Made by a program: the position numbers and the translations under genes. Under the pieces are notes generated by a model. It searched no databases and was not told where the DNA came from. It worked only from the letters and a program-made list of their open reading frames with translations. Positions 3,136-30,131 of a stretch of DNA of 38,903 nt are shown in pieces. Numbering within the stretch: position 1 is the first letter of the stretch; every line of letters begins with the position of its first letter. This DNA comes from a virus (lineage: Duplodnaviria > Caudoviricetes): positions 1 to 38,903 of IMG/VR virus record IMGVR_UViG_3300027205_000004; one strand, given 5' to 3'.

Positions 3136-4694
3136 TGGCGATCTTCGGTATCGGTCGCACCGGCGCGTTGCAGAAGCAACTGGCTGAAGCGCAGCAGAAG
3201 AATGGTTACCTGAAGCGTGCGTATGCCGCCGCTCAGAACAACCGCCTCACGTCTGACTGGATCAGTCAAGCCACATCGGCTGACAGCGAGATCCGAGGCA
3301 GCATCAGGATGCTTCGCAATCGCGCCCGTCAACTGGTGCGTGATTCCGACTTTGCCAAGTCTGCGCTGCGAGCCGTTCGCAACAACGTCGTTGGCACCGG
3401 CATCAGGATGCAGGCTCAGGTGCGCATGCAACGTGGTGGGCGCCTTGCTGATGAGATCAATCGCCGCATCGAAGAGGAATTTGACCGCTGGACTTCAGCC
3501 AAGCGTTGTCACGCCGGCGGCAAACTGAGCTGGTATGACATCCAACGCCTCAGCATCACCTCTGTTCTTGAATCCGGTGAAGTCTTCATCCGTCTTGTCA
3601 AGCAACCCTTCGGTGGCAGCAAAGTGCCGCTCGGGCTTGAACTCATCGAGTCGGATCTTCTTGATGATGATTACAGCGGCATCGAAAAGAACGGCAATGA
3701 AGTACGAATGGGCGTGGAGATTGACAAGTGGGGCAGACCGGTTGCCTATCACTTCTTTGATTACCACCCTGGCGATTACCAATTTGCTTACGCCGCAAAG
3801 GCAATGAAGCGCCGCGTGCGCATTCCTGCTGAAGACATCATTCACCTCTACCTCATTGAACGCCCCGGCCAGACGCGTGGTGTTAGCGCGTTTGCTACGG
3901 CGATCATGCGCCTGCGCAATTTGTCTGGCTACGAAGAAGCTGAGATTGTCGCGGCTCGCGCCAGCAGCAGCATGATGGCGTTCGTGAAGACACCGGATCA
4001 GGAGCTGTTTGAAGATGGCACGTTTGATCAGGAGTCTGTCCTCGACTTCTCACCCGGCAGCATCCGCCGATTGGCTCCCGGTGAAGAGATGCAGTTCTTC
4101 ACGCCCAATCGCCCTGATGATGCATTCACTCCTTTTGTGCAGCAAATGCTGCGAGCTGTGGCTGCTGGGATTGGCTGTTCTTACACGCAAGTCAGCTCAG
4201 ATTTCTCTCAGAGCAACTACAGCTCTTCACGACTGGAACTGCTTGAAACAAGAACGCATTACAAAACACTCCAGCAATACTTGATCGAATCGCTGTGCGA
4301 AGAGGTCTACGAGAAATGGATTGAAATGGCAGTGTTGGCCGGCGTTCTGGATCTGCCAAATTACGACAGCAACCCTGAGCGTTACGAAGAAGCCAAGTGG
4401 ATTGCACCCGCTGCTCAGTTCGTTGATCCGCAGAAAGAAGCTGCTGCTTACAAGGAACTAATCCGCTCAGGCATCATGACGCTCTCGCAGGTGATCGCCC
4501 TGCATGGTGGTGACTTTGAAGATCAAATGCGTCAACGCCAGCATGAACTTGCTGTTGCTGATGAGTACGGCATTGTCCTTGATACCGACCCGTCGCAGGT
4601 TTCTAACAACGGTGTTTCTCAACCTGTTCCTGTTGCTTCAACTGAACATCCGATGGAACATGAGGAAGAACCTGAACTTGAGGACATCGACTGA
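3135..4694 (+). CDS. Portal protein, lambda family
   Basis: LRNRARQLVRD, RPGQTRGVS, DFSQSNYSSSR, VDPQKE motifs. Confidence 0.95.
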   Translation: MAIFGIGRTGALQKQLAEAQQKNGYLKRAYAAAQNNRLTSDWISQATSADSEIRGSIRMLRNRARQLVRDSDFAKSALRAVRNNVVGTGIRMQAQVRMQRGGRLADEINRRIEEEFDRWTSAKRCHAGGKLSWYDIQRLSITSVLESGEVFIRLVKQPFGGSKVPLGLELIESDLLDDDYSGIEKNGNEVRMGVEIDKWGRPVAYHFFDYHPGDYQFAYAAKAMKRRVRIPAEDIIHLYLIERPGQTRGVSAFATAIMRLRNLSGYEEAEIVAARASSSMMAFVKTPDQELFEDGTFDQESVLDFSPGSIRRLAPGEEMQFFTPNRPDDAFTPFVQQMLRAVAAGIGCSYTQVSSDFSQSNYSSSRLELLETRTHYKTLQQYLIESLCEEVYEKWIEMAVLAGVLDLPNYDSNPERYEEAKWIAPAAQFVDPQKEAAAYKELIRSGIMTLSQVIALHGGDFEDQMRQRQHELAVADEYGIVLDTDPSQVSNNGVSQPVPVASTEHPMEHEEEPELEDID

Positions 4695-7357
4695 TGGCAA
4701 AGGTTGGTGATAAAACAATCGACCTGATGCCAACAGAAGGCATGAAGGCCGAAGCGCGTCGTTATCGCGCATGGAAGAAAGACGGTCGCCCCGGTGGCAC
4801 TGATGTTGCCGCTACGCGTGCCGGCCAGATCCTTTCCGGCGATGAACTGAGTCCTGAGACTGTCATCACGATGGCCGCATGGTTTGCTCGCCATGAGGTT
4901 GACAAGCAGGGCAAAGGCTTCCGTCCTGGTGGTGAAGACTATCCTTCGCCGGGTCGCGTAGCATGGGCGGCATGGGGCGGTGATTCAGGTCAAACCTGGA
5001 GCAACATGAAATCCAAAGCCATCAAAAAAGCACAGGAGCGTGCCATGGAAATCAACGAAGAGATCGTCGATGGTCGCCCCTATCCAAATGAGCATGCTGC
5101 TCGCCTGACTGATCCTGATCAGTACGACAGCATCCGCCGCGTCAATGATGAATTCGGCGCTGGCATTGATGCTATTTATGGGATCAACGAAGGCACCTCT
5201 GAGTTGCAGGCCATCCGCTTTGATGCTGACCGTTTTACGCCTGCCGAGGCTCGCGAATGGCTGAGCGATCACGACTTTGACCCGATGATGTTTGAAGAAG
5301 CCACCGATGAACGCGAAGAGGAGCGTGCTGCCCCTGACGCCGTCAAGGTTGGTGATTTTGTAGAGTGGGATTCAAGTGGTGGCACCGCACGCGGAAAAGT
5401 TGAACACGTGATGCGTGAAGGTGTACTTGGTGTTCCTGATTCTTCGTTTAGCATTAACGCATCTGAAGAAGATCCCGCTGCGTTGATTCGCGTGTACCGC
5501 AAAGACAGCGAAGGTAGTTACAAAGAGACCGAGACTTTGGTCGGTCATAAGTTCTCTGAACTTCGCAAGATTGCTGCGCTGCGTTTCTTTGAAGGCGAGA
5601 CGCTCAAGCGTTCACTGAGTACTGAATTCCGCTCCGACTCCGAAGATCGCACGCTTGAGTTCCCCTTTGCCAGCGAAGCGCCTGTTGAGCGTTACTACGG
5701 CATGGAAGTGTTGAGCATGGATGCCAAGTCCATGGATCTCACCCGTCTCAATGATGGTGCGCCTCTGTTGTACCAACACGATGCAGACAAGATCGTCGGC
5801 GTTGTACAGAAGGCTTACATCAAAAACAAGCGTGCCTATGCACGCGTAAAACTCGCGAACAACGAACTGGGTCGCGAGATGCAAGAGTTGATCAAGGATG
5901 GAATCATCCGCAATGTCAGCTTCGGCTACAAGATCAACTCCATGGAAGCCGATGAGTCCACATCACCTGTGACTTATCGCGCTACCAGTTTCCAACCGTT
6001 TGAAATAAGCCTGGTCACCGTGCCGGCTGATAATTCGGTTGGAATCGGACGTTCTTTCTCCCATAATGAGAACGTCGATACGGCCTCAGCCGTTCACAGT
6101 CAACCCAACGGAGTTACAACCGTGGATCAAAACCTCAATGTTGAGGCTATCCGCGCTGAGGCCGCTCAGGCCAAGGCTAAGGAAATGGCCGACATGATTG
6201 CTCTTGGTCAACGCACCAAGAACATTGAAATGGCTCAGGAGTTCATTGCTAACTCCCGCAGCCTCGATGAGCTTCGCTCTGCCCTTCTGGAAAAGATGGG
6301 TGTGGAAGAGAAGCCCCTGAACCCCAAGGATGCCGAGATCGGCATGTCGGACAAAGAGAAGCGTGACTTCTCCTTCATCCGCGCCATCAACGCTCTGGCT
6401 CACCCCAACAGCCAAGAAGCTCAGCGTGCTGCTGCTTTCGAAATGGAAGTCAGCCGTGCTGCTCAGCAGAAGTCTGGCAAGGAAGCCCGTGGCATCCTGA
6501 TCCCCGCTGATGTGCTGGGTTATGGCCGCCGTGACCTGACCGTGGGTTCTGCCTCCGGTGGTGGTGATTTGGTTGCCACCGATCTGATGAGCGACAGCTT
6601 CATCGATCTGCTCCGCAAGGCTCTTGTGCTGCAGACCGCTGGCGCGACTGTGATGACCGGCCTCCAAGGCATGGTTGCTCTGCCCCGTCAGTCTGGTGGT
6701 GCCACTGTGTACCACGTTGCTGAGTCCGGCTCGATCACCGAAGGTCAACTGACCGTCGACCAGGTGACGATGCAGCCCCGCACGATTGGTGCGCTGACTG
6801 ATTACTCGCGTCGTCTGCTGCTTCAGTCCAGCATCGACATCGAGAACCTGGTGCGTCGCGATCTGGCTCAACAGATTGCTATCGAAGTTGAGAACCAAGC
6901 CATCAACGGTATTGGCGCTGCTTCGTATCCGCTGGGCTTCCTGAACGTGACCGGTATCAACACCGAGTCCGGTTACACCACGTTCCTGGATTACGTGAAT
7001 GCTGAGGCCGCTCTCAGCACCGACAACGCCCTGCTGGGCAGCCTCGGTTACATGATGAATTCCGCTCTGCGCGGGACTCTGAAGACCACCGAGAAGTCGG
7101 CCACCGGCACCAACGCCAACTTCATCTACGAAGCCGATAACACCATCAATGGTTACCCGGCTTATGTGTCCAACTCCATGCCGAACAACACTGCGGTGTT
7201 CGCTAACTTCAGCGACATCCTGATCGGCTTCTGGAGCGGTCTGGACATCATGGTTGATCCTTACACCGGTTCCGCTTCCGGCACCGTGCGTGTGGTGGCC
7301 ATGCAGGACTATGACGTGGCCATCCGTCACCCTGAGTCCATCTGCAAGCTGTCCTGA
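4694..7357 (+). CDS. Fused accessory domains + HK97-type prohead protease + major capsid protein
   Basis: Protease motifs LLYQHD, NVSFGY, EISLVTVPAD; HK97-fold capsid in the C-terminal ~410 aa. Confidence 0.92.
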   Translation: MAKVGDKTIDLMPTEGMKAEARRYRAWKKDGRPGGTDVAATRAGQILSGDELSPETVITMAAWFARHEVDKQGKGFRPGGEDYPSPGRVAWAAWGGDSGQTWSNMKSKAIKKAQERAMEINEEIVDGRPYPNEHAARLTDPDQYDSIRRVNDEFGAGIDAIYGINEGTSELQAIRFDADRFTPAEAREWLSDHDFDPMMFEEATDEREEERAAPDAVKVGDFVEWDSSGGTARGKVEHVMREGVLGVPDSSFSINASEEDPAALIRVYRKDSEGSYKETETLVGHKFSELRKIAALRFFEGETLKRSLSTEFRSDSEDRTLEFPFASEAPVERYYGMEVLSMDAKSMDLTRLNDGAPLLYQHDADKIVGVVQKAYIKNKRAYARVKLANNELGREMQELIKDGIIRNVSFGYKINSMEADESTSPVTYRATSFQPFEISLVTVPADNSVGIGRSFSHNENVDTASAVHSQPNGVTTVDQNLNVEAIRAEAAQAKAKEMADMIALGQRTKNIEMAQEFIANSRSLDELRSALLEKMGVEEKPLNPKDAEIGMSDKEKRDFSFIRAINALAHPNSQEAQRAAAFEMEVSRAAQQKSGKEARGILIPADVLGYGRRDLTVGSASGGGDLVATDLMSDSFIDLLRKALVLQTAGATVMTGLQGMVALPRQSGGATVYHVAESGSITEGQLTVDQVTMQPRTIGALTDYSRRLLLQSSIDIENLVRRDLAQQIAIEVENQAINGIGAASYPLGFLNVTGINTESGYTTFLDYVNAEAALSTDNALLGSLGYMMNSALRGTLKTTEKSATGTNANFIYEADNTINGYPAYVSNSMPNNTAVFANFSDILIGFWSGLDIMVDPYTGSASGTVRVVAMQDYDVAIRHPESICKLS

Positions 7358-15609: not shown

Positions 15610-16273
15610 GGTCTACGGCGCACTCCGCAAAAAGCTGGGTCAGTGCCGCTTCCAATTTGAAGCCGACACGCCAGCGCAGGCGCTCAAGGCACTTTGCGTC
15701 AATTTTCCCGGTCTTGAAAAGTGGCTGATTGATAGCGAACAGGACGGTGTTGGCTATCGTGTAACAATCGGAAAAGAAAAGGTCACCGAACAAAACGCCG
15801 TGTTGATTGCGGCTCCATTTAGTGAGCGGGAAGTTTTTAGTATTACGCCTGTAATTGCTGGTGCTGGCGATGGCGCGGGACAGATTTTGGCGGGTGTTGG
15901 CCTGATCGCCTTGGCCATTGTTACCGGAGGCATTGCATCTGCTGGTGTGGCCTTGGGAGGTTTTATGGGAATCGGAACAATCGGAACGGCTGTTGTTGGT
16001 ATAGGCGCCAGCCTTGTCCTTGGCGGCATTGCACAAGCTCTTTCGCCTGCACCGGTTAATTCGACTTCAACTTTTGAGCGCGGACGTGAGGCGGCAAAGC
16101 TGGAATCATTTAGCTTTAGCGGCATTGTGAACACGTCCAAACAGGGATTGCCCGTACCGATTGCCTACGGTCGATTGTTTGTGGGTTCCGCTGTAATTTC
16201 TAGCGGCCTTGATGTGGAGTTCAGCGGCAATGCTGGTAAATCCACTGGCGAAGTATTTGCGAGCAAGGGTTGA
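15596..16273 (+). CDS. Tail assembly protein, lambda gpI-like
   Basis: Ubiquitin-like N-terminus, Gly-rich hydrophobic segment, NT..QG.PVP..YG. Confidence 0.9.
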   Translation: MKVVKVYGALRKKLGQCRFQFEADTPAQALKALCVNFPGLEKWLIDSEQDGVGYRVTIGKEKVTEQNAVLIAAPFSEREVFSITPVIAGAGDGAGQILAGVGLIALAIVTGGIASAGVALGGFMGIGTIGTAVVGIGASLVLGGIAQALSPAPVNSTSTFERGREAAKLESFSFSGIVNTSKQGLPVPIAYGRLFVGSAVISSGLDVEFSGNAGKSTGEVFASKG

Positions 16274-19200
16274 TGACAAAAAGAACAGCTCTACTCCAAG
16301 GTTCTGGTGGCGGCGGCGGTGGAGGCTGCTTCCTTGGCCATACGCTCGTCGCGGTTCCAAACGGCCAACGCCGAATTGATGAACTGCAATCGGGCGATCT
16401 GGTTCTGAGCTTTGACCATACCGGCGAAGTCCACGAAGCCAAAATCCTCAAAGTCCACGAACACGAAGGCGAGCGCGTTATCCGCTACACGCTCTGGGGC
16501 GGACAGCATCTTGATGCCACCCCTAACCACTGGGTTCTAAACCAGTTCAACGCCTTCGTCGAAATTGACACGTTTGGCGCTGATGATTGCCTTGTTGACG
16601 CCAACGGCCACCTCCGTCCCGTCGTCGGCAAGACCGAATTCTGCACTGGCACGGTCTACAACCTGACCGTCGAAGGCCACCACACCTTCATCGCCGGCGG
16701 AATCCGCGTCCACAATGCCGGTCTTGGCCTTGGTATTGCTGGTGCTGGTGGCGGTGGTGGCGGTGGCGGCAAGGGCGGTGGTGGCGGCAGAAGGACGCCT
16801 TATGAGGCAGATGATTCGCTGCAGTCCACCCAATATGCAAGTGTTCTAGATCTTATTTGCGAAGGTGAAATCCAAGGTCTAGATAACGGCGCCAAAAGTA
16901 TCTATTTAGATGATACCCCGATTGAAGATGCGGCAGGAAATAAAAACTTTCGCGGCTATCAAGTTGTTACCAGAAATGGCACGCAAAATCAAACTATTAT
17001 CGGTGCTGATCTAAATGCAACAGAATCTGAAAATGGCGTCAGCGTCCAGCTTTTTGCATCCACACCTGTAACTCGTCAAATCACGAATACAGCAGTAGAT
17101 CGAGTCCGCGTGACGGTTAACGTTCCAGCACTGCAAATTTTGCAAGACGATGGCGACATTGTTGGCCACAGCGTATCGCTAAAAATTGAAACCCAATACA
17201 ATTCCGGCGGTTACACAGAAGTCATTAGCGACACAATTAGCGGTAAAACAGGCAATTTATATCAGCGCGATTACATGCTGGCGCTGAATGGCGCATTTCC
17301 AGTTGACATCCGAGTTACAAGAACAAGTGGCGATGAAAGCTCCGCTAAGCGCCAAAATGACATCTACTGGTCTAGCTACACAGAAATTATTGACGAAAAG
17401 TTGCGTTATCCAAACAGCGCCCTTGTTGGCCTGCGGTTTGATTCGCGCAACTTCAATAATATCCCCAAGCGTAAATATCTAATCCGTGGAGCAAAAATAC
17501 AGTTGCCCAGCAACGCAACCGTTGATACCACTACACACCTAGGGCGCGTAACCTACGCCGGCGTCTGGGACGGCACTTTTGGCGCTGCGACTTGGTGCAA
17601 CGACCCCGCCTGGTGCCTGTGGGATTTATTGATCAGCACTCGTTACGGCGCCGGAATACCAGCCAGTAACTTAGATCGTTATGACTTTTATGCGATTAGT
17701 CAGTATTGCAACGAGTTGGTCGAAAACGGCAAAGGTGGCTTGGAGCCTCGCTTCTCATGCAACCTGCTGATTAACAGCCGCGACGAGGTTTACAACGTCA
17801 TCCAAGAAATGACCAGCCTGTTCCGTGGCATCGCCTATTACGGCGCCGGTTCGCTGGTACTGCAGCAGGACAAGCCAACTGATTCGCAATATCTGCTGGG
17901 ACCAAGCAACGTTGTTGATGGCGTTTTTAATTACAGCGGATCATCTCAAAAGGCTAGACACAGCGTCGCCACTGTTGCCTGGCAGTCCTACGACACCTTG
18001 GGCGAAGTTGAATACGAATACGTTGAAGATGCGGAAGCTGTAGCCAAATACGGCATCATTAATAAAGACATCAAGGCGCTGGGTTGTTACAGCCAAGGCC
18101 AAGCACATCGGGCTGGTAAATGGGCGCTACTGAGCGAACAGAATCTGACCGAAACTATCACCTTTTCGGTCTCAATCGACAGCGGCATCATCCTGCGCCC
18201 CGGCATGGTGATCGACATTGCCGATCCGCTTAAAGCCGGATCACGCCGCAGCGGTCGCGTTAGTTCTGCCACCACAACCGCCATCACTGTTGACAGCAGC
18301 ACCAATCTCACCGTCAACCTGTCGAACAGCCCGACAATTTCGGTGTTGATGCCAACCGGCTTGGTGGAAACCAAAACCATCAGCAGCATTTCTGGCACAA
18401 CCATCAACGTCAGCAGCGCGTTCAGCGAAGCACCCAACGCTAACGCTATCTGGCTAATCCAAACCAGCGACATCGAAGCCCAGCAATACCGCGTGTTGAA
18501 TGTCGCAGAATCCGAAGATGGTATTTACGGCGTAACTGCGCTGCAGTACAACAGCACGATTTACGACGCGATTGAAAGCAATAACAAATTACTGCGCCGA
18601 GACATTAGTAACCTGTCTGCCAAGCCCGATACAGTTGGCAACATTTCTGGATCGGAATACATTTATCAAGATGGGCAAAATGTATTTTCCGGTTTTGATT
18701 TAAGTTGGATCAGCCCTAGACAACGTGTTAGCGAATTTCGGGTTGACTATCGAATTGATAATGATAACTGGAAGCAGGTTGTCAGCACCTCTCCTTCGGT
18801 GCAAATTAAACAAACACGCCCCGGCATTTTATATATTCAAATAACGGCGGCAAACTACCTCAATAAAATTAGCGACATTGCATCAGCCCAATTCACGCTT
18901 GTTGGTAAAACTGCTGTTCCCGGCAATGTTCAAAATCTGACGTTTGAAGCCATCAACAACAACTCCGGTCGCCTGCGCTGGGACGAAACCGTTGATCTTG
19001 ACGTAAAAGTTGGCGGCAAAATTCATATTCGCCACAGCAGCTTGACCGACGGCACGGCTACTTGGAGCAACAGCGTTGACCTAATCCCCGCCAAATCCGG
19101 CAGCTCAACAGAGGCAATCATTCCGCTTGTAGAAGGCGAAGTGCTGGTGAAATTTGAAGATGACGGTGGGCGGCAATCAGCCAGCGAAACCAGCGTCATT

Positions 19201-20037
19201 ATCGACCTGCCCGACACTATCGCGCCGCTAACAATTCAAACCCGCCGCGAAGATCAGGACGTTCCGTCTTTCCAAGGCACAAAGTCAGACACCTTCTACA
19301 GCGAAGAGTTCGACGCGCTCACGCTGGATGGCACGACCTTAATTGATTCGGTTGTTGATTTTGACCTGATCCCAACGCTGGATGTACTTGGACCCGTGGC
19401 TAGCTCTGGCACTTACACATTCGCCAGCACATTGGATCTGGGCAACACCTTTTCTGTGGATCTTCGCCGGTATTTCGTCACCCGTGGTTATTACCCATCC
19501 GACCTGATCGACTCCCGCGCCAACACCGTGGATGATTGGTCCGACTGGGACGGCGCCATTACAGACAAGGTGAACGCCAAGCTGATGTTGCGCTCCACCA
19601 ATGATAATCCCAGCGCCACACCAACTTGGACCGCATGGCAGGAATTCGTCAACGGCGCCTTCCGTGGTCGCGGCTTCCAATTCCGCGCCGATCTCAGCAG
19701 CAGCGCCATCGACCAAAACATCTTGGTGGACGAACTGGGCTACGACGCCACCTTCCAGCGCCGCACGGAAAACAGCGATGGAGCGGTCAGCAGCGGAGCC
19801 GGCGCCAAGGCGATCACGTTTACCAACGCCTTCTGGACTGGAACAACAAGCCTCGGTGGGGTTAACGCCTACCTTCCCAGCATCGGCATCACCGCTCAAA
19901 ACATGGCAACCGGCGATTTCTTTGAAGTCACCAGCGTCAGCGGCACTGGCTTCACGGTCACCTTCAAAAACTCGGCTGGAACTGCAGTTAGTCGTAATTT
20001 CAACTGGAGTGCGGTTGGCTATGGCCGAGGCGGCTAA
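16273..20037 (+). CDS. Tail tip / host specificity protein, lambda gpJ-like, with N-terminal Hint domain
   Basis: DLICEGEI.GL, YPNSAL, W..DPAW.LWD, LRPG motifs; ATG overlaps gpI stop. Confidence 0.93.
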   Translation: MTKRTALLQGSGGGGGGGCFLGHTLVAVPNGQRRIDELQSGDLVLSFDHTGEVHEAKILKVHEHEGERVIRYTLWGGQHLDATPNHWVLNQFNAFVEIDTFGADDCLVDANGHLRPVVGKTEFCTGTVYNLTVEGHHTFIAGGIRVHNAGLGLGIAGAGGGGGGGGKGGGGGRRTPYEADDSLQSTQYASVLDLICEGEIQGLDNGAKSIYLDDTPIEDAAGNKNFRGYQVVTRNGTQNQTIIGADLNATESENGVSVQLFASTPVTRQITNTAVDRVRVTVNVPALQILQDDGDIVGHSVSLKIETQYNSGGYTEVISDTISGKTGNLYQRDYMLALNGAFPVDIRVTRTSGDESSAKRQNDIYWSSYTEIIDEKLRYPNSALVGLRFDSRNFNNIPKRKYLIRGAKIQLPSNATVDTTTHLGRVTYAGVWDGTFGAATWCNDPAWCLWDLLISTRYGAGIPASNLDRYDFYAISQYCNELVENGKGGLEPRFSCNLLINSRDEVYNVIQEMTSLFRGIAYYGAGSLVLQQDKPTDSQYLLGPSNVVDGVFNYSGSSQKARHSVATVAWQSYDTLGEVEYEYVEDAEAVAKYGIINKDIKALGCYSQGQAHRAGKWALLSEQNLTETITFSVSIDSGIILRPGMVIDIADPLKAGSRRSGRVSSATTTAITVDSSTNLTVNLSNSPTISVLMPTGLVETKTISSISGTTINVSSAFSEAPNANAIWLIQTSDIEAQQYRVLNVAESEDGIYGVTALQYNSTIYDAIESNNKLLRRDISNLSAKPDTVGNISGSEYIYQDGQNVFSGFDLSWISPRQRVSEFRVDYRIDNDNWKQVVSTSPSVQIKQTRPGILYIQITAANYLNKISDIASAQFTLVGKTAVPGNVQNLTFEAINNNSGRLRWDETVDLDVKVGGKIHIRHSSLTDGTATWSNSVDLIPAKSGSSTEAIIPLVEGEVLVKFEDDGGRQSASETSVIIDLPDTIAPLTIQTRREDQDVPSFQGTKSDTFYSEEFDALTLDGTTLIDSVVDFDLIPTLDVLGPVASSGTYTFASTLDLGNTFSVDLRRYFVTRGYYPSDLIDSRANTVDDWSDWDGAITDKVNAKLMLRSTNDNPSATPTWTAWQEFVNGAFRGRGFQFRADLSSSAIDQNILVDELGYDATFQRRTENSDGAVSSGAGAKAITFTNAFWTGTTSLGGVNAYLPSIGITAQNMATGDFFEVTSVSGTGFTVTFKNSAGTAVSRNFNWSAVGYGRGG
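16327..16716 (+). other. 130-aa Hint (intein-like) domain inside gpJ
   Basis: Block A CFLGHTLV, block B ATPNH, block F/G VYNLTVEGHHTF...VHN; next residue is Ala. Confidence 0.9.
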
Positions 20038-20071
20038 AGTTGGACAAATACTGTCCTTATAAGGACTCGGC

Positions 20072-21877
20072 ATGGCTCAACACGATTATGTGATTGCTAA
20101 CGGCACCGGCGCCGCCGTCCGTTCCGATCTCAACAACGGCCTTTCCGCAATCGTCACCCAGAACAGCGGAGCGACCGAGCCGGCAACCACTTACGCCTTC
20201 ATGCGCTGGGCGGATACGACCGCTGGCGTGATGAAAATGCGGAACAGCGCCAACAACGCTTGGATCACGCTGTACCAGTTGGATGGCGAGTGGACCAACA
20301 TTGCCTTTGAAAACGGCACCGCTGCTGCCCCGTCGATCTACTTCAAGGACAGTGGCACCGACACAGGCTTCTATTCGCCCGGCGCCAACCAAGTCGGAAT
20401 TTCAACGGGCGGCACGGCTCGCCTGACCATCGACTCCAACGGCAACGTCGATATTGACAGCAACACGCTCTACGTTGATGCCACCAATAACAGGGTAGGT
20501 CTGGGGGTTAGTGACCCTGGGCAAAAGTTAGTTATTGGTGGCGGCACAAATGGACGTACCCGAATCAAAGTTGATTCAGGTTCTGGTAACTTTGGCAAGT
20601 TCGAGTTTTCGACTGATTCAGCTTTAACTACAAGTGCCGTTCAGGTAGCGGAGATTACGGCCAACATTACCGGGACAGGTCCGCTTACTTCAAGCCTGCA
20701 GTTTGCGACCAATAGCGGCAACTCGCTTAATACCGCAATGACGATAGATTCGTCACAGCGAGTAGGGATTGGCACTACTAGTCCTGCAAGACAGCTTGAT
20801 GTTAATAGTACTGCGATTTTTGACAGCAATGGCAACGGGTCCACTACTAGCCCGTCTATTGCGATTGGTTCTACAGGTACAGGTCTTTCTTACATTGGGA
20901 GTCAACAACTTGCTTTCCTTACAAACTCTGCCGAACGCGCCCGCATCGACAGCTCGGGACGCCTGTTAGTTGGCACGTCTACTGGTCGTAATGGTGGATA
21001 TGCGGATCCCGCTCAAGTACAAATTGAAGGGTTGAGTTACAATAGTGCCGCTCAAAGTATCATTATTGATTCCAATGATGGAAATGGTCCAAGTCTAAAT
21101 TTTGGCAAATCTCGTGGTACAAGTTTAAACTCCAATACCGTTGTTCAAAGCGGCGACAGGCTTGGTGTAATTGACTTTGCCGGAGCAGACGGAACTTCTC
21201 TAAAAAGAGGGGCAGTAATTGAAGCCTATGTAGACGGCACCCCCGGCGCCAGCGACATGCCTGGCCGCCTAGTGTTCTCCACTACCGCCGATGGAGCGAG
21301 CAGCCCGACGGAACGGATGAGGATAAATAACGGTGGTGGCGTGATGATAGGAACAACAAACGCCCAGACAGGAATCGGTGATCTAACGACAGTTACAGGT
21401 GTAGCTTTTAGCCCTGACGGCTGGGTTGGAGGATGCAGATCAAGCGAAGCCGCTGGCTATTTCACGCGAACAGGTACGGATGGCAGGGTAATCAACTTTT
21501 ACAAAGGAAGCACAGGTGTTGGCGGCATTTCTGTCACAACAACCGCAACCGCTTTTAATACTTCATCGGATTATCGCTTAAAAGAAAACATTATCAGCAT
21601 CTCAAATGCAATCGAAAGAGTTAAACAGCTAAATCCCTGCCGTTTTAATTTTATTGCTAACCCCGAGCAAACTGTCGATGGCTTTATTGCTCACGAAGCA
21701 CAGCAGGTCGTGCCTGAGGCAGTTGAAGGCACCAAAGATGAAGTCGATGAAAACGGCAAACCTATTTACCAAGGCATCGACCAGTCCAAACTGGTGCCGT
21801 TGCTGACCGCTGCGCTGCAGGAAGCGTTGGCTGAGATTGAGTCCCTGAAGGCTCGTGTTACCGCGCTAGAGCCATAA
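20072..21877 (+). CDS. Modular tail fibre with C-terminal intramolecular chaperone (peptidase S74)
   Basis: Repeated RVGIGT / ERARIDSSG / ERMRI linkers; TSSDYRLKENI, GFIAHE, IDQSKLVPLL. Confidence 0.92.
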   Translation: MAQHDYVIANGTGAAVRSDLNNGLSAIVTQNSGATEPATTYAFMRWADTTAGVMKMRNSANNAWITLYQLDGEWTNIAFENGTAAAPSIYFKDSGTDTGFYSPGANQVGISTGGTARLTIDSNGNVDIDSNTLYVDATNNRVGLGVSDPGQKLVIGGGTNGRTRIKVDSGSGNFGKFEFSTDSALTTSAVQVAEITANITGTGPLTSSLQFATNSGNSLNTAMTIDSSQRVGIGTTSPARQLDVNSTAIFDSNGNGSTTSPSIAIGSTGTGLSYIGSQQLAFLTNSAERARIDSSGRLLVGTSTGRNGGYADPAQVQIEGLSYNSAAQSIIIDSNDGNGPSLNFGKSRGTSLNSNTVVQSGDRLGVIDFAGADGTSLKRGAVIEAYVDGTPGASDMPGRLVFSTTADGASSPTERMRINNGGGVMIGTTNAQTGIGDLTTVTGVAFSPDGWVGGCRSSEAAGYFTRTGTDGRVINFYKGSTGVGGISVTTTATAFNTSSDYRLKENIISISNAIERVKQLNPCRFNFIANPEQTVDGFIAHEAQQVVPEAVEGTKDEVDENGKPIYQGIDQSKLVPLLTAALQEALAEIESLKARVTALEP

Positions 21878-21892
21878 GTCCTACTCGTTACT

Positions 21893-22036
21893 GTGCCTGA
21901 CGAAATCACACCGGAGGAAAACGAGCGGCGCTTCAGAGAATGTCTTCGCCTGATCAACAACGTCACCTACGAGCGACTGGTGGAGTTGATGGGCGAGGAG
22001 TTCCTTGAAGAGTATCGCCGTGTTGCTCGGCATTAA
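21893..22036 (+). CDS. 47-aa cassette protein (VPDEITPEENERRFRECL...), not in ORF track
   Basis: GTG starts 3 nt after the 21876 site; manual translation. Confidence 0.6.
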   Translation: MPDEITPEENERRFRECLRLINNVTYERLVELMGEEFLEEYRRVARH

Positions 22037-22113
22037 AAAGGGGCAGGATGTCACCCCTGCCCCTGTGCAACGGAATATCACAACCGTTGCGGTGCCTTGT
22101 CAGCCGAAGCACT
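22035..22113 (-). ncRNA. Putative three-hairpin small RNA ending in an intrinsic terminator
   Basis: -10-like TACCAT (22121-22126, minus strand); three adjacent stems; last stem followed by TTTTT. Confidence 0.5.
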
Positions 22114-22124
22114 GTAGCACATGG

Positions 22125-22193
22125 TATGGTGGTGGAGCGGCGCAGTGCTACCTGCCCGCCCCATGACCGCCGATTGGAGGATCGACGATGACC
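22125..22193 (+). promoter_or_regulatory. Promoter + two-hairpin structured leader, copy 1
   Basis: Aligns without gaps to 23236-23304, with compensatory stem changes. Confidence 0.7.
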
Positions 22194-22574
22194 CAAGATT
22201 ACAAGCACCCGATCACCTCACCGCTGGAATTAAGCGACGAGCAAGTGGGCGAATGGCTGATCGACGACGGCTACCCGTGGGACCCCTCGGAGCAAGCTGT
22301 CATCACCATTACCACCAACCGACTCAAGAATGTTGCCCGCCAAGCATTCCAAGCTGGTGCCGACCAAGAGCTGGAGGCGTGCCTCAGGCTGGTTGAAATC
22401 AATGCTGGTGAGGACGCTTATGACTTTGCTCGCTACATCCGCTCCGCCCGCCGCCCCAAGCCGCCAAGCTTGAAGGAGCAGGCGCTGGAAGCGCATAATC
22501 GGATGATGGCCGGAGAAGAAACGCAAGATGATTGGTCGATTGTCCGCCGCGCACTGGAGCAACTCGATGACTGA
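22188..22574 (+). CDS. Hypothetical phage protein
   Basis: GGAGG upstream; GADQELEAC and RRPKPPSLKEQAL motifs recalled from cyanophage small proteins. Confidence 0.75.
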   Translation: MTQDYKHPITSPLELSDEQVGEWLIDDGYPWDPSEQAVITITTNRLKNVARQAFQAGADQELEACLRLVEINAGEDAYDFARYIRSARRPKPPSLKEQALEAHNRMMAGEETQDDWSIVRRALEQLDD

Positions 22575-23031
22575 CTTCCGAGCGCTGTGCGCTGAGCTGC
22601 TGGCCGCACTGGAGAACGAAGGCTACGCCCACTGGTCTACCGCTCCAGACGAAGATGAGCTATGCCTACGCGCCCGCGCCGCCTTGGCCCAGCCCGAGCC
22701 GAAAGAGCCGACGGACGAGGAACTGCAAAAACTAGCTGGCATGTTCTTTACTTCCACTGAGTTCGGCTTTGTGGACTTTGCTCGCGCTGTCCTAGTCATT
22801 CCCGCTACTATGTCTGAACTTTCACCCCAAGCGCAAGCTGTCTGGGACGCCTACGGCACTTTGGCCGATCTTTATAACTGCGAAGTCACAGAGGCTGAAA
22901 TGCTTGCCGCCGCTCTTCGTACTGTGGCAGAACAATTTTATTTTGATTGGAACGGTATGTGCTGCGCTGAACACCTCAAAGAAATTGCCAGAGAACTCGA
23001 CGCCAGTGAGCCTGTAACCGAAGCCCAGTAG
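22567..23031 (+). CDS. Chimeric hypothetical protein (MTDFRALCAEL.. fused in frame to MSELSPQAQAV.. at 22810)
   Basis: Reads through the 22793 site; second ATG lies 3 nt after the site. Confidence 0.65.
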   Translation: MTDFRALCAELLAALENEGYAHWSTAPDEDELCLRARAALAQPEPKEPTDEELQKLAGMFFTSTEFGFVDFARAVLVIPATMSELSPQAQAVWDAYGTLADLYNCEVTEAEMLAAALRTVAEQFYFDWNGMCCAEHLKEIARELDASEPVTEAQ

Positions 23032-23046
23032 TCACCTTCCCTACCC

Positions 23047-23205
23047 ATGACGCGCTCCTTCTCGGAACTCACCAAAGATTTTGCCCCAGAGCGCCGGGAG
23101 CGCATTGAACAGCGCAAGGCGGAGATCCAAGAAGATCTTGTTGAATGTCCAGAGTGTTTCGCCTTGATTTACCCGAGCTGGCTTGAGATGGACGAGGACG
23201 AGTAG
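23047..23205 (+). CDS. 52-aa cassette protein (MTRSFSELTKDFAPERRERIEQRK...CPEC), not in ORF track
   Basis: Bounded exactly by the 23029 and 23203 sites; manual translation. Confidence 0.65.
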   Translation: MTRSFSELTKDFAPERRERIEQRKAEIQEDLVECPECFALIYPSWLEMDEDE

Positions 23206-23235
23206 TCATCCTCTGATCGAGGTCTGGCTCTGGTA

Positions 23236-23304
23236 TAAGATTGTGAGGTAGCGCAGCGCCAACTGCCTACCCCATGACCGCTCCACTGCTCTGGAACGAT
23301 GACC
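23236..23304 (+). promoter_or_regulatory. Promoter + two-hairpin structured leader, copy 2 (recombinase leader)
   Basis: -10-like TAAGAT; stems GGTAG/CTACC, GCAG/CTGC, TCCA/TGGA. Confidence 0.7.
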
Positions 23305-24159
23305 ACATCCTATTCGGTGTCCCAGCTTTGGGATGCCTTTGTCGCTGAGCGATCCATCTCGCTTTGCCCCACCAGCCTCACCTCCGACTACAGGCAGGTG
23401 ACCAAGTGGTTAAAGCGATGCCCGATCCAAGATCTGCAACAAGCACGCCAGGTGATGATCTGGGTGCTGGGGCAGAAACCTGTGCTGTCTTCACGTCGCG
23501 TCGCGATGTACACGAAAACGATGTATAAGTGGGCAGCGCAGGAAGACGTTGGTTACCTGAACCGCAATCCGCTTGCGAGCTTCAAGATGCCAAAGGCGCC
23601 TCAACGCGATGAAGAAATCATCGTGATTCCGCGCAATGAAATCGGCTTGGTGCTGGCCGCTTTGGAGGCAAAACTGACCTATCGCACGGTCAACTGGTCG
23701 GCCTACACCGAGTTCATGCTTCAGACCGCGATGCGCACCGGCGAGGTTCGTGCTGCTCGCTGGGATGATATCAAGGACGGGAAGATCCTTGTTCATCAGA
23801 ACTGGACTTTGACCCATGGATTGAAGGACAGCACCAAGACGAACAAAAAACGGTGGGTGCCGTTGAACGGCAAGTGCCAAGCGATCCTTGGGTCTCTACC
23901 GAAGGATTCCGAATTTATCTTCCCGTGGGATCGACTTGCGTTTCAGAGTTACTTCCGCAAGAAGCTTCAGCCGCTACATCAGGTTGGACTGATCTCTCAC
24001 CTTTACCGACCTTACGACTGCAGGCACACCGCAATCAGCCATTGGATTGAGGCTGGCATCCCAGTACCTCAGGTGGCGGCTTGGGCAGGCAACACCAGCG
24101 AGGTGATCTTCAAACATTATTGCAATACCACAAAGGAGTACGAAATGCCGGAGATTTGA
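23299..24159 (+). CDS. Tyrosine recombinase (286 aa, no arm-binding domain)
   Basis: MRTGE (R), TKT (K), YDCRHT (HxxR variant), AGNT, KHY (catalytic Y). Confidence 0.92.
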   Translation: MTTSYSVSQLWDAFVAERSISLCPTSLTSDYRQVTKWLKRCPIQDLQQARQVMIWVLGQKPVLSSRRVAMYTKTMYKWAAQEDVGYLNRNPLASFKMPKAPQRDEEIIVIPRNEIGLVLAALEAKLTYRTVNWSAYTEFMLQTAMRTGEVRAARWDDIKDGKILVHQNWTLTHGLKDSTKTNKKRWVPLNGKCQAILGSLPKDSEFIFPWDRLAFQSYFRKKLQPLHQVGLISHLYRPYDCRHTAISHWIEAGIPVPQVAAWAGNTSEVIFKHYCNTTKEYEMPEI

Positions 24160-24186
24160 TAGATTGACGCCACGGCACAGAAATCC

Positions 24187-24507
24187 ATGCCCAGCGCTAC
24201 CCCTAGCACCACCTTCACCTGGCGGATCGCCAACCTCGAAAGAGAGACCGCCGATGGATTCGTTCTGACGGCACACTGGACGCTCTCGGCTGAAGATGGC
24301 ACCTACGCCAGCTCGGCCTATGGGTCCGTCGGCTTTGAGCGCCCCGACAAACTCATTCCGTACAACCAGTTAACGGAAGAACAGGTGGTGCAATGGGTGA
24401 AGGACAACTTCGGCGCTGAGAAGGTGACCGAGATCGAAGGCGCCCTGCAGCATCAACTTGATGAACAGCGGCATCCGACGCAGGCTGCAGGTGTGCCGTG
24501 GCAGTAA
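24187..24507 (+). CDS. Tail fibre-associated small protein
   Basis: TW.I..LER...DG.V..AHW, IPY..LTEE.V..WV, GVPW; family usually found directly after fibre genes. Confidence 0.7.
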   Translation: MPSATPSTTFTWRIANLERETADGFVLTAHWTLSAEDGTYASSAYGSVGFERPDKLIPYNQLTEEQVVQWVKDNFGAEKVTEIEGALQHQLDEQRHPTQAAGVPWQ

Positions 24508-24632
24508 AAAGCAAGGTTGGCGTCAAAGCCATTCAATTTGTTCCACGCCCACCTAAGAAAACACGGCAGGGAAATGGAAAACATTCCTTGCCTAACCACG
24601 GTCGCAAATTGACCCGTGGGCAGGGACGGTAA
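24498..24632 (+). CDS. 44-aa highly basic protein (KKTRQGNGKHS...RGQGR), not in ORF track
   Basis: Manual translation; motif recalled from cyanophage small basic proteins. Confidence 0.65.
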   Translation: MAVKSKVGVKAIQFVPRPPKKTRQGNGKHSLPNHGRKLTRGQGR

Positions 24633-24658
24633 GATCTAAAAGTAGTTGCAGACGTGCG

Positions 24659-24889
24659 ATGTCTGAGAATGGTTTTTGGCGTGGAGTCAAGCAAGAAACC
24701 GTTGCGGGCATTGGCGTTGCAGCAACTGTGGCTTTAGCCTCGGGCATCTTTTACTTGGTGTACACGGTGCCGACCAAACTTGATGATGTACTTCAAAATC
24801 AAATCAAATTTGAAGAAAAGATTGGAAAGATGGATGATCGTATCCTTGATCACGAGCAACGGTTGATCAAGTTGGAGATCAAGCCATAA
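24659..24889 (+). CDS. Single-TM membrane protein with coiled coil (lysis module)
   Basis: Hydrophobic segment then DHEQRLIKLE. Confidence 0.65.
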   Translation: MSENGFWRGVKQETVAGIGVAATVALASGIFYLVYTVPTKLDDVLQNQIKFEEKIGKMDDRILDHEQRLIKLEIKP

Positions 24890-24913
24890 GCTGGTAGCAG
24901 ACGCTATTTCGTC

Positions 24914-25051
24914 ATGGATCCCACGACTGCTGCTGCCATTGCGATTGTGATCGCTGCCGGCTCTGAAATCATTGCCCTGCTGCCCATTAAAGAAAACTCT
25001 TGGGTACAACTCATTGTGAAGGCTCTGAAGATTATTTTCCCAAAGCGCTGA
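24914..25051 (+). CDS. 45-aa holin-like membrane protein (MDPTTAAAIAIVIAAGSEIIALLPIKENSWVQL...), not in ORF track
   Basis: Hydrophobic; SE...P.K.NS..QL motif; upstream of endolysin. Confidence 0.7.
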   Translation: MDPTTAAAIAIVIAAGSEIIALLPIKENSWVQLIVKALKIIFPKR

Positions 25052-25344
25052 ACGCTGACGTTGTGTGGTTGTGGCGTTACGACAAGCGTGACTGGCGGCA
25101 TCACCTACTGCGTGCTGCACAACAAGCCAAGTTTCATGCAACTCTGACGCCACGACTAGATCGTGAAATTGAAAAGGTCAATCAGGTGATTGATCTTGAA
25201 ATGGAGCGAAACAAACGTCAGCCTGTGATTAAACACGAAGAGCCTACGCCTGAGCAAACTGGAGACAGCCGCCTTCTGGGTGGTCCAATGTCCATCTCAT
25301 CTCCTTGGAACGATGACGACCCAGAACCGCCTGCGGCTAGTTGA
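25045..25344 (+). CDS. Lysis-module ORF, probable -1 frameshift extension of the holin-like gene
   Basis: Open -1 frame after C CCA AAG; no convincing own ATG/RBS. Confidence 0.55.
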   Translation, partial: ALNADVVWLWRYDKRDWRHHLLRAAQQAKFHATLTPRLDREIEKVNQVIDLEMERNKRQPVIKHEEPTPEQTGDSRLLGGPMSISSPWNDDDPEPPAAS

Positions 25345-26329
25345 TTTGTTCAAGTATTACAAGGAGCTGCCGCATCAAACGGCGGCCATATTTGAACTGG
25401 AATCTGCGTTATTAAAGGTATCGCCTGGTATCTTGAATCGCGATCAGCAATGGTTCAAGACGTGGAGTCAGGCTGGTAAACAAGACAGGTTTGATAACAA
25501 TTGGGATGGTGTTTGCGCTGCTGCCAAGAAGGCTGGCGCGAAGTTCCCTGAACTTGTTGCTGCGCAGTGGGCGTTGGAATCTGGCTATGGCAAGCACGTA
25601 TCAGGTGAAAACAATTTTTTTGGCCTGAAGGGTACTGGTACAACGCGAAACACAAAGGAGTACGTCAACGGACGTTGGATCACAATTCAGGATACGTTCC
25701 TTGATTTTCCTGATCTTGAAACTTGCGTGTTCTACTTGGTAGAGCGGTGGTACAAGGACTATCACGTCTACAAGGGTTGCAACAATGCGGCTGATCGTGA
25801 AGACGCTGCACGTTGGCTGGTAAATGACGGCTATGCCACTGATCCCACCTACGCCGACAAATTGATCAAACTAATGAACCAGCATGTGCAGGGCAAGCCC
25901 GCGAACGACAAGTTCACGCCTGACAAGCCGTTCAACTTCAAGGTGACACCAAATATCACCTACGGCGAACTGGCATTGTTTGACGAGAAGCGCCGGTTTC
26001 AGGTGCAAGCACAGTGCGACACGGCTCTGGAGATGTGCAAGTACTTGGAGAAGGTGCGCAGCCATTTTGGCGGCAAGTCGATCATTATTACTTCTGGCTA
26101 TCGCCCACCAGCCATTAACAAGCAAGTGGGCGGTGCCAGCAACAGCGAGCATCTGTACAACATGACAGGCGTTGGCGCGATTGACTTTTACGTCAAGGAC
26201 GTGGACATCTACGAGGTGCAAGAGTACTGTGATCAGACCTGGCCGTACTCCTTGGGATACGGTGCAACCAAGGGGTTTGTGCATCTAGGCATGCGGCTGG
26301 GTCGTCCACGTATTCGTTGGGATTACTGA
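25313..26329 (+). CDS. Endolysin: GH73 glucosaminidase + peptidase M15
   Basis: AQWALESGYG, NNFFGLKG, GYATDP.Y; ITSGYR..N..VGGA..SEH, A.D, FVHL. Confidence 0.9.
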   Translation: MTTQNRLRLVDLFKYYKELPHQTAAIFELESALLKVSPGILNRDQQWFKTWSQAGKQDRFDNNWDGVCAAAKKAGAKFPELVAAQWALESGYGKHVSGENNFFGLKGTGTTRNTKEYVNGRWITIQDTFLDFPDLETCVFYLVERWYKDYHVYKGCNNAADREDAARWLVNDGYATDPTYADKLIKLMNQHVQGKPANDKFTPDKPFNFKVTPNITYGELALFDEKRRFQVQAQCDTALEMCKYLEKVRSHFGGKSIIITSGYRPPAINKQVGGASNSEHLYNMTGVGAIDFYVKDVDIYEVQEYCDQTWPYSLGYGATKGFVHLGMRLGRPRIRWDY

Positions 26330-29958: not shown

Positions 29959-30131
29959 CAGGCGTTGGCCTCGACCTCTTCAATGCCCTGCTCAAGGATC
30001 TGACGCATGGCGACAGCGGCGGGCAGGTTGTGCTGCTTGGCAGCGGCCTTGATGCGTGCATACAGATCAGGCTCGATCTGGAGCATCACGGTCTTCAGGG
30101 TGGAAGCTTTGGCGGTCAGTTGGATGGCCAT
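29958..30131 (-). CDS. 57-aa Arc/CopG-like RHH regulator, not in ORF track
   Basis: KTVMLQIEPDLYARIKAAAKQH....AMRQILEQG; first gene of the leftward operon. Confidence 0.7.
   Translation of the reverse strand: MAIQLTAKASTLKTVMLQIEPDLYARIKAAAKQHNLPAAVAMRQILEQGIEEVEANA

Follow-up and report, generated by a model that had tools for sequence, protein, structure and literature searches.

The question raised by the window analysed here, the full 38,903 nucleotides of IMG/VR viral record IMGVR_UViG_3300027205_000004, is why a tail fibre gene should carry short inverted-repeat sites within its reading frame and be followed by a tyrosine recombinase gene. The 38.9 kb record is that of a lambda-like phage with genes for a terminase, portal, capsid, tape measure and tip protein J. 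The locus runs from the fibre gene (positions 20072-21877) through small genes to the recombinase gene (23299-24159) and a DUF7936 gene. The original prediction took the sites for slots at which fibre modules are exchanged in frame between co-infecting phages, and comparison of related loci supports this proposal. Relatives have exchanged modules at the sites. Site-specific exchange there, by whatever agent, is very likely, and the phage tyrosine recombinase, acting largely in trans, would probably be the enzyme that swaps like-addressed modules between co-infecting genomes, although its link to the sites is drawn from comparison.

Each site is an imperfect palindrome of about 31 bp, in which 12-bp arms surround an asymmetric 7-bp spacer; the arms, first put at 4 bp, are corrected to about 12 bp and are imperfect. 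In the non-coding slots each arm is conserved given the other, out to about 12 bp. This anatomy of inverted arms around a 7-bp spacer fits strand exchange by a tyrosine recombinase, and the sites are predicted crossover sites.

The eight sites of the window all lie on the plus strand. The four proposed at 20496, 20763, 20967 and 21270 were confirmed within the fibre open reading frame (ORF), in one reading phase. They are site 1 (20488-20518; spacer TCTGGGG at 20500-20506; linker RVGLG), site 2 (20755-20785; GATTGGC at 20767-20773; RVGIGT; 193 unique contexts), site 3 (20959-20989; TGGCACG at 20971-20977; RLLVGT) and site 4 (21262-21292; GTTCTCC at 21274-21280; RLVFST). Of the four placed downstream of the gene, those at 22793 and 23029 are full matches, namely site 6 (22785-22815; CATTCCC at 22797-22803) and site 7 (23021-23051; CACCTTC at 23033-23039), whereas those at 21876 and 23203 are degenerate. 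The former is a real slot, site 5 (21868-21898; CCTACTC at 21880-21886), which spans the fibre stop codon; its left arm is degenerate (AAGT), yet its spacer has 75 contexts. The latter, site 8 (23195-23225; CATCCTC), precedes the recombinase leader and has a strong left arm and a weak right arm (arm scores 12.4 and -3.7). Its spacer was seen once, blocks shared with relatives start at 23201-23203, and the site is probably decayed. TAG stops occur in only two of 29 window ORFs checked, and these are the left arms of sites 7 and 8.

The motif TAG-N9-YTA occurs nine times on the plus strand of the window, six of these within 20496-23029 (2.5 kb). When the fibre gene was recoded 5000 times with genome codon usage, one version had at least four sites, as did 10 of 5000 within-gene synonymous shuffles, hence the motif is enriched over the null, as anticipated. 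The codons used at the sites are indeed rare in 11 window genes (GTA, 39 of 376 valine codons; TTA and CTA, 23 and 33 of 477 leucine codons). The suggestion that segments between the linkers are AT-richer held in part, the modules having 47-50% GC and the site neighbourhoods 48, 48, 57 and 69%.

The constraint at the sites acts on DNA. In four linker classes defined by peptide alone (107, 89, 88 and 66 contexts), third-base conservation was 0.82-0.99 at site positions 1, 4, 7, 10 and 13, in agreement with the predicted freezing of synonymous positions at the arms. In the SGRLLVGT class (site 3; 107 contexts) it was 0.93-0.99 over site positions 1-13, and the four codons immediately before the site, two of them invariant through the class definition, gave 0.38-0.54. 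As a control, 354 linkers of identical peptide had majority codons of 34-59%, but these came from 140 loci picked for non-site spelling and are biased against sites by design. At site positions 3 and 11 the variation extends to non-synonymous changes (Val/Glu, Thr/Ser/Ala, Ala/Val/Asp), and since residues are swapped there while synonymous spacer bases stay fixed, the core is bounded at 7 bp. Linkage of these two positions to their own flanks was in the right direction and weak (27 versus 10 of 82; 14 versus 10 of 53).

A motif of this kind could arise incidentally, as a by-product of the protein linkers, of stop codons of the TAG type or of small hairpins. The in-gene sites do fall on conserved peptides, and some left arms are stop codons. 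However, the cultured phage S-CBP1 spells the same linker peptides with other codons in 6 of 6 linkers, the TA is kept while the encoded residue changes between Val, Leu and Ile, and the right arm is conserved in non-coding slots. None of the eight window sites folds better than shuffled sequences (z -1.42 to 1.07), and a hairpin model was rejected on this ground. The by-product explanation is thus largely refuted already and is scarcely credible. In S-CBP1 (locus L428, 2822-6331), linkers repeat GGC ATC GGC ACC three times, which may reflect codon bias or a second site family. Fibres of S-RIP1 (L430, residue 191) and S-EIV1 (L431, residue 365) keep the right arm with a spacer one base off; these linkers are possibly decayed sites.

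Each distinct spacer had been proposed to mark a slot, and spacer order, kept in 1808 of 1892 pairs across 223 loci, bears this out. The lengths of 351 of 354 in-gene modules are multiples of three. Across 168 arrays the three in-gene slots hold 91, 130 and 120 alleles, which form 167 distinct module combinations, and four to seven alleles per boundary recur with different neighbours. With locus L706 the window shares only its second module, between sites 2 and 3, whose neighbours differ there. Module turnover is rapid: eight pairs of loci with backbones at least 97% identical have 0 of 30 modules in common, a result that alone could also mean whole-fibre swaps.

Breakpoints, scored as sharp identity breaks among 286 sequences, map to the sites as predicted. 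At strict sites lay 64 of 141 right ends and 32 of 111 left ends, as compared with null means of 13.4 and 7.3 and maxima of 24 and 14. When relatives were compared with the window, 13 of 22 right ends coincided with the final base of a spacer, at three of the sites, which probably reflects three events, and seven fell at non-site places. At site 1, blocks of at least 94% identity from nine relatives stop exactly at 20506 (probably one event), and two runs have contigs that stop at 20506 and contigs that begin at 20496. At site 5, blocks stop at 21886 in three loci and begin at 21877-21881, and contigs begin at 21877 in three runs. The block 22793-23039 is shared from site to site with locus L024 (99%) and recurs as contigs in runs X13 and X7. 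Overall, in runs other than those flagged as the source, contigs have an end at 20496, 20506, 21877, 22793 and 23039; 8 of 20 listed runs were used. No clean site-to-site deletion joint, of the kind that excision would leave, was present among the joints listed for assembled contigs. In the two other array types described below, 4 of 30 and 0 of 22 breakpoints were at sites, too few events to be informative.

Spacer identity, which had been described as usually necessary, holds for most flank groups, 44 of 58 and 65 of 82 having just one spacer, but is relaxed among the accessory slots. In the 223 loci, 51 pairs of duplicates with the same spacer lie within 4.5 kb of each other, many in tandem fibres, hence strict exclusion of duplicates is not claimed.

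The same patterns might be produced if short conserved joints recombined by homology, as in T-even gp37/gp38, and were homogenised in the process with no site-specific enzyme. Coding joints do share a median of 16-17 identical bases, and up to 42; some shared blocks run past the site (L706, -24 and +17), breakpoints recur also at non-site repeats, and sites persist without the enzyme. However, homology alone does not predict one palindromic arm pair at a fixed 7-bp spacing with about 20 unrelated spacers in three gene families and intergenic DNA. In addition, the freezing stops at the site edge inside longer invariant peptides, and unrelated non-coding sites of the same slot share a median uninterrupted run of only 11-12 bases. 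Recombination by homology alone is therefore distinctly improbable.

The candidate enzyme, encoded on the plus strand at 23299-24159, is a tyrosine recombinase of 286 aa that matches PF00589 at 47 bits (cut-off 27.1) and carries R146, K180, Y239-x-x-R242, N265 and Y274. R146, K180 and N265 are present in 191 of 191 proteins and Y274 in 190 of 191, and Y239 and R242 are invariant in nine aligned rows. A likeness of the Tyr-x-x-Arg motif to XisA/XisC found no confirmation among the papers listed. The members form a tight family, with lengths of 283-294 aa and identities of at least 43%, and its outgroups are full-length integrases of 350-400 aa. The description of the enzyme as arm-less was correct: it is without the N-terminal extension of ~80 residues of these nearest relatives, and the arm-binding N-terminal domain of lambda-type lysogeny integrases is not present in the family. 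The reading frame is open in 206 of 215 de-duplicated loci and cut by contig ends in the other nine, and median dN/dS is 0.034 (22 non-saturated pairs). As judged by these values, the gene is intact and under purifying selection. The predicted structure of family member P0122 (pLDDT 85.5) matches Tn1549 Int and the core and catalytic domains of lambda Int, and also XerA and Cre. A search of solved structures by sequence gave no match, and NCBIfam gave two weak matches, none to the IntI family, the one to XerD being at 20 bits, far under its cut-off of 329.6.

The closest cultured relative is Integrase A12 of Synechococcus phage S-LBS1 (MG271909), which is 80% identical to the window recombinase and is encoded directly after a tail fibre gene. 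It has been read as a lysogeny integrase, the array sites not being mentioned in the accessible part of that paper (PMC6157547). The window gene could likewise encode an ordinary lysogeny integrase acting on a separate attP/attB pair. The PF00589 fold, the full-length integrases as nearest outgroups and the lysogeny proposed for S-LBS1 (PMC6157547) favour this, but the arm-binding extension is missing, the sites are left unexplained, and the same paper, in its accessible part, reports no induction evidence of integration. A scan of 185,579 species genomes, which detects close relatives only, gave three close matches, all in short contigs (2-20 kb) of metagenome bins from unrelated taxa, and one weak partial match. 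Within that range no prophage context and no sign of a recombinase confined to a separate attP/attB pair, which had been named as a possible refutation, was found. A role solely in lysogeny is thus highly improbable.

Beyond the window, the recombinase lies at the edge of arrays of such sites. Around its gene in 80 viral loci (the best 80 of 117; not de-duplicated), motif density is 2.4 per kb at 1-2 kb upstream and 0.08-0.42 downstream. Of the 56 informative loci in clades 1, 3 and 5, 55 have the recombinase gene after this fibre. None of the 62 loci of clade 0 has this fibre, and the recombinase gene there converges on one for a LamG/SPRY/DUF7483 virion protein, whose sites are in frame and lie within unrelated peptides. 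In some branches of clades 2 and 4 the recombinase lies next to arrays of genes for proteins of ~260 aa, with the sites between the genes. An arm matrix, blind to the spacer and trained on 153 non-coding fibre-type sites, gave, in clade 0, 38 matches on the downstream side, 33 of them with new spacers, as against 2 upstream and a Markov null of 1.7, and 17 versus 0 and 7 versus 0 in other non-fibre recombinase groups, on one side only. The matches peak at a 7-bp spacer (47 versus at most 11 at other lengths). A match is present in 11 of 19 well-flanked non-fibre-type recombinase loci, with 0.12 expected per locus, and in eight whole records the matches cluster in arrays (five of six in the window). 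Control loci gave 36 matches versus a null of 8 in 457 kb, and as this exceeds the null, some control loci belong to the same network. The fibre of S-LBS1 holds five matrix-scoring sites, making this phage a cultured carrier of the full system. Judged by these matches, two unrelated virion-gene arrays beside the same recombinase family bear these arms around other spacers, which is new here. Arm variants tracking divergent enzyme clades were not found, clades below 55% identity having too little flank. A divergent family member (54-55%) at 3196-4488 on the minus strand of L549 adjoins a serine recombinase with no matrix-scoring array nearby. In G013:C1, two arm-matrix matches at 30066 and 30243 are far from the recombinase and may belong to a second array.

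Several observations weigh against exchange by the phage enzyme. Off strict sites lay 77 of 141 right and 79 of 111 left breakpoints, many of the latter having TAG and a known spacer but a weak right arm, and ends recur at 22135-22142, 22574-22577 and 23128 without a TAG site. More than one spacer was found in 14 of 58 and in 17 of 82 flank groups, in most cases spacers of the related C...C kind from accessory slots, and 8 of the 19 well-flanked non-fibre-type recombinase loci have no matrix match. The contexts and loci are related by descent, hence all counts overstate independent events. The catalytic set of tyrosine recombinases is R-K-H-R-H/W-Y, and two of these six canonical positions, those of His or Trp, hold Tyr and Asn here, as they do in the full-length outgroups. 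The recombinase, originally placed beside the array, is absent in cis from most site-bearing relatives. Beside the fibre it is present in only 11 of 68 DUF7936-anchored loci, and within 3 kb in 6 of 41 exact-site loci (0 of 51 controls, p=0.006). No PF00589 gene was found in the four records at least 90% complete (two of which share one array; positive controls were run), and a recombinase elsewhere in enzyme-less genomes was sought in ten records, only those four being so complete, and found in none. With or without the enzyme, arm scores (median 13.5 versus 14.4, p=0.55) and contig breaks (3 of 11 versus 11 of 56) are alike. One enzyme-less pair likewise differs in all four modules, and the cultured phage S-CBP42 has sites and no recombinase homologue. 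The recurrent breakpoint at 22135-22142 lies inside a 46-nt repeat common to 22125-22170 and the recombinase leader (23236-23281).

Hence the sites might be true tyrosine-recombinase crossovers served by a host-encoded, Xer-like or other enzyme, as in pdif modules, with the phage gene as a passenger. That most site-bearing phages are without the gene and have sites no weaker, and that the gene toggles between backbones 98-99% identical, is what a passenger would show. Such toggling also indicates that absence of the enzyme is often recent, and makes action in trans plausible. A 7-bp overlap fits lambda-type integrases better than the 6-bp spacer of dif, which counts against a host Xer enzyme, as does the purifying selection on the gene. 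Moreover, a quick tree of 88 labelled proteins and 3 outgroups (102 of 190, unlabelled, were left out) places the gene at the edge of three unrelated arrays in six arrangements. In three of these the enzyme is on the strand opposite to the spacers, and in a fourth likewise in L601. A passenger of asymmetric slots should keep the orientation of the cargo, and the gene repeatedly does not. A cassette flanked on both sides was also considered and rejected, no conserved site being found past the recombinase stop codon in clades 1, 3 and 5. An outside enzyme with a passenger gene is therefore unlikely.

Exchange by the phage recombinase would proceed as follows, by established tyrosine-recombinase chemistry. 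One monomer would occupy each arm, and strands would be swapped across the 7-bp spacer. Matching spacers would favour like-for-like exchange and so give slot specificity, while different, co-oriented spacers would limit deletion and inversion within one genome. The substrate would be a second phage genome in the same cell; two crossovers would replace a module, and one would yield a chimera in replicating concatemers. The related C...C accessory spacers likely cross-react at a lower rate, which would lead to gain or loss of small genes and of the recombinase. Since the cargo consists of fibres and lectin-like virion proteins, exchange would diversify host recognition. The cultured podoviruses S-CBP42 (L427, 3842-4906) and S-CBP1 (L428, 6329), without the recombinase, carry the same spacers, thus the address set spans phage families.

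The fibre encoded at 20072-21877 on the plus strand has 601 aa and matches PF13884 (C-terminal Peptidase_S74 chaperone) and PHROG tail fibres. Its N-terminus is constant to about residue 142 and is followed by four variable modules. The predicted structure, of low confidence (pLDDT 65) and too weak for domain limits, resembles the T5 L-shaped fibre and Bdellovibrio fibres. Between the non-coding slots lie accessory small genes on the plus strand (21893-22036, 22188-22574, 22528-23031 and 23047-23205), without a Pfam match. The DUF7936 gene (24187-24507, plus strand) ends the variable region, and the recombinase is present or absent ahead of it. The host of the window phage would be a picocyanobacterium, because the closest cultured recombinase is that of S-LBS1 and 50 of 124 fibre matches are Synechococcus phages; the site-bearing phages are aquatic and likely infect cyanobacteria. 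Elsewhere in the window, a gpJ-like tip-attachment ORF (16270-20037) has an N-terminal Hint/intein-like domain (about residues 18-151) with Gly-rich stretches on both sides, its Hint matches scoring below curated cut-offs, and a single ORF of 887 aa (4694-7357) combines a TUDOR-like domain, a prohead protease and a major capsid domain.

Parts of this arrangement are familiar. In integrons a recombinase also stands at the edge of an ordered array of exchangeable units, whereas here there are no folded attC-like hairpins, the units are in-frame domains and genes, and each joint has its own address; a check for an integron cassette promoter gave two promoter-like matches versus 1.1 expected. The pdif modules of Acinetobacter plasmids likewise have conserved arms, differing spacers and exchange between DNA molecules. 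They use host XerC/D, 6-bp spacers and alternating orientation, whereas here the spacer is of 7 bp, the sites are co-oriented and placed within coding sequence, and the gene for the candidate enzyme belongs to the phage. A further parallel is engineered recombinase-mediated cassette exchange, in which heterospecific lox/FRT sites, with conserved arms and differing spacers, bound modules that move between DNA molecules. Tetart et al. reportedly described in 1998 recombination at conserved motifs in T-even tail-fibre genes. There, adhesin segments are said to be swapped between phages at conserved joints as well, but here the joints are palindromic in DNA, frozen at synonymous positions and found also between genes. 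The Rin, Rci, Gin, Cin and Min systems similarly have crossover sites within the receptor-binding gene and past its 3' end. In the Rin shufflon of Bifidobacterium prophages, an arm-less tyrosine recombinase adjoins the receptor-binding gene, and the accessible part of the source describes copies of a single site, silent tips in inverted orientation and inversion that stays within one genome (PMC6109161). In contrast, each slot here has a different spacer, the sites are co-oriented in a fixed order, no silent copies are found (18500-26000 holds no long inverted copy), and the alleles are distributed among members of the population. The view that this is not a classical shufflon therefore stands.

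No description of the system was found in the open-licence literature, subscription papers being outside the coverage, and there is a minor but real chance that it has already been described, perhaps in work on recombinase-linked variable fibres of lake phages. The accessible parts of PMC8042965 and bioRxiv 10.64898/2026.02.14.705889 deal with other systems.

Fast in-frame shuffling of phage receptor-binding domains is usually ascribed to homologous or illegitimate recombination. The locus offers a specific alternative that can be put to the test: its enzyme is named, its sites are defined, and both occur in the cultured phage S-LBS1. On balance, this recombinase family, carried by a minority, may well be a shared good in co-infection, which allows population-level cassette exchange by 7-bp coding addresses. 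It seems about as likely that such exchange moves domains and whole genes, in frame, in several cyanophage families and at least three unrelated virion-gene arrays. If so, engineered cassette exchange would have a counterpart in nature, in which about 20 spacers are in use. Such a system would also account for breaks in metagenome assembly upstream of the recombinase, where 44 of 80 recombinase loci end within 2.5 kb, versus 12 downstream. A common freshwater 'integrase', now counted as a lysogeny marker, would be reinterpreted, and co-infecting phages could reshuffle their host range.

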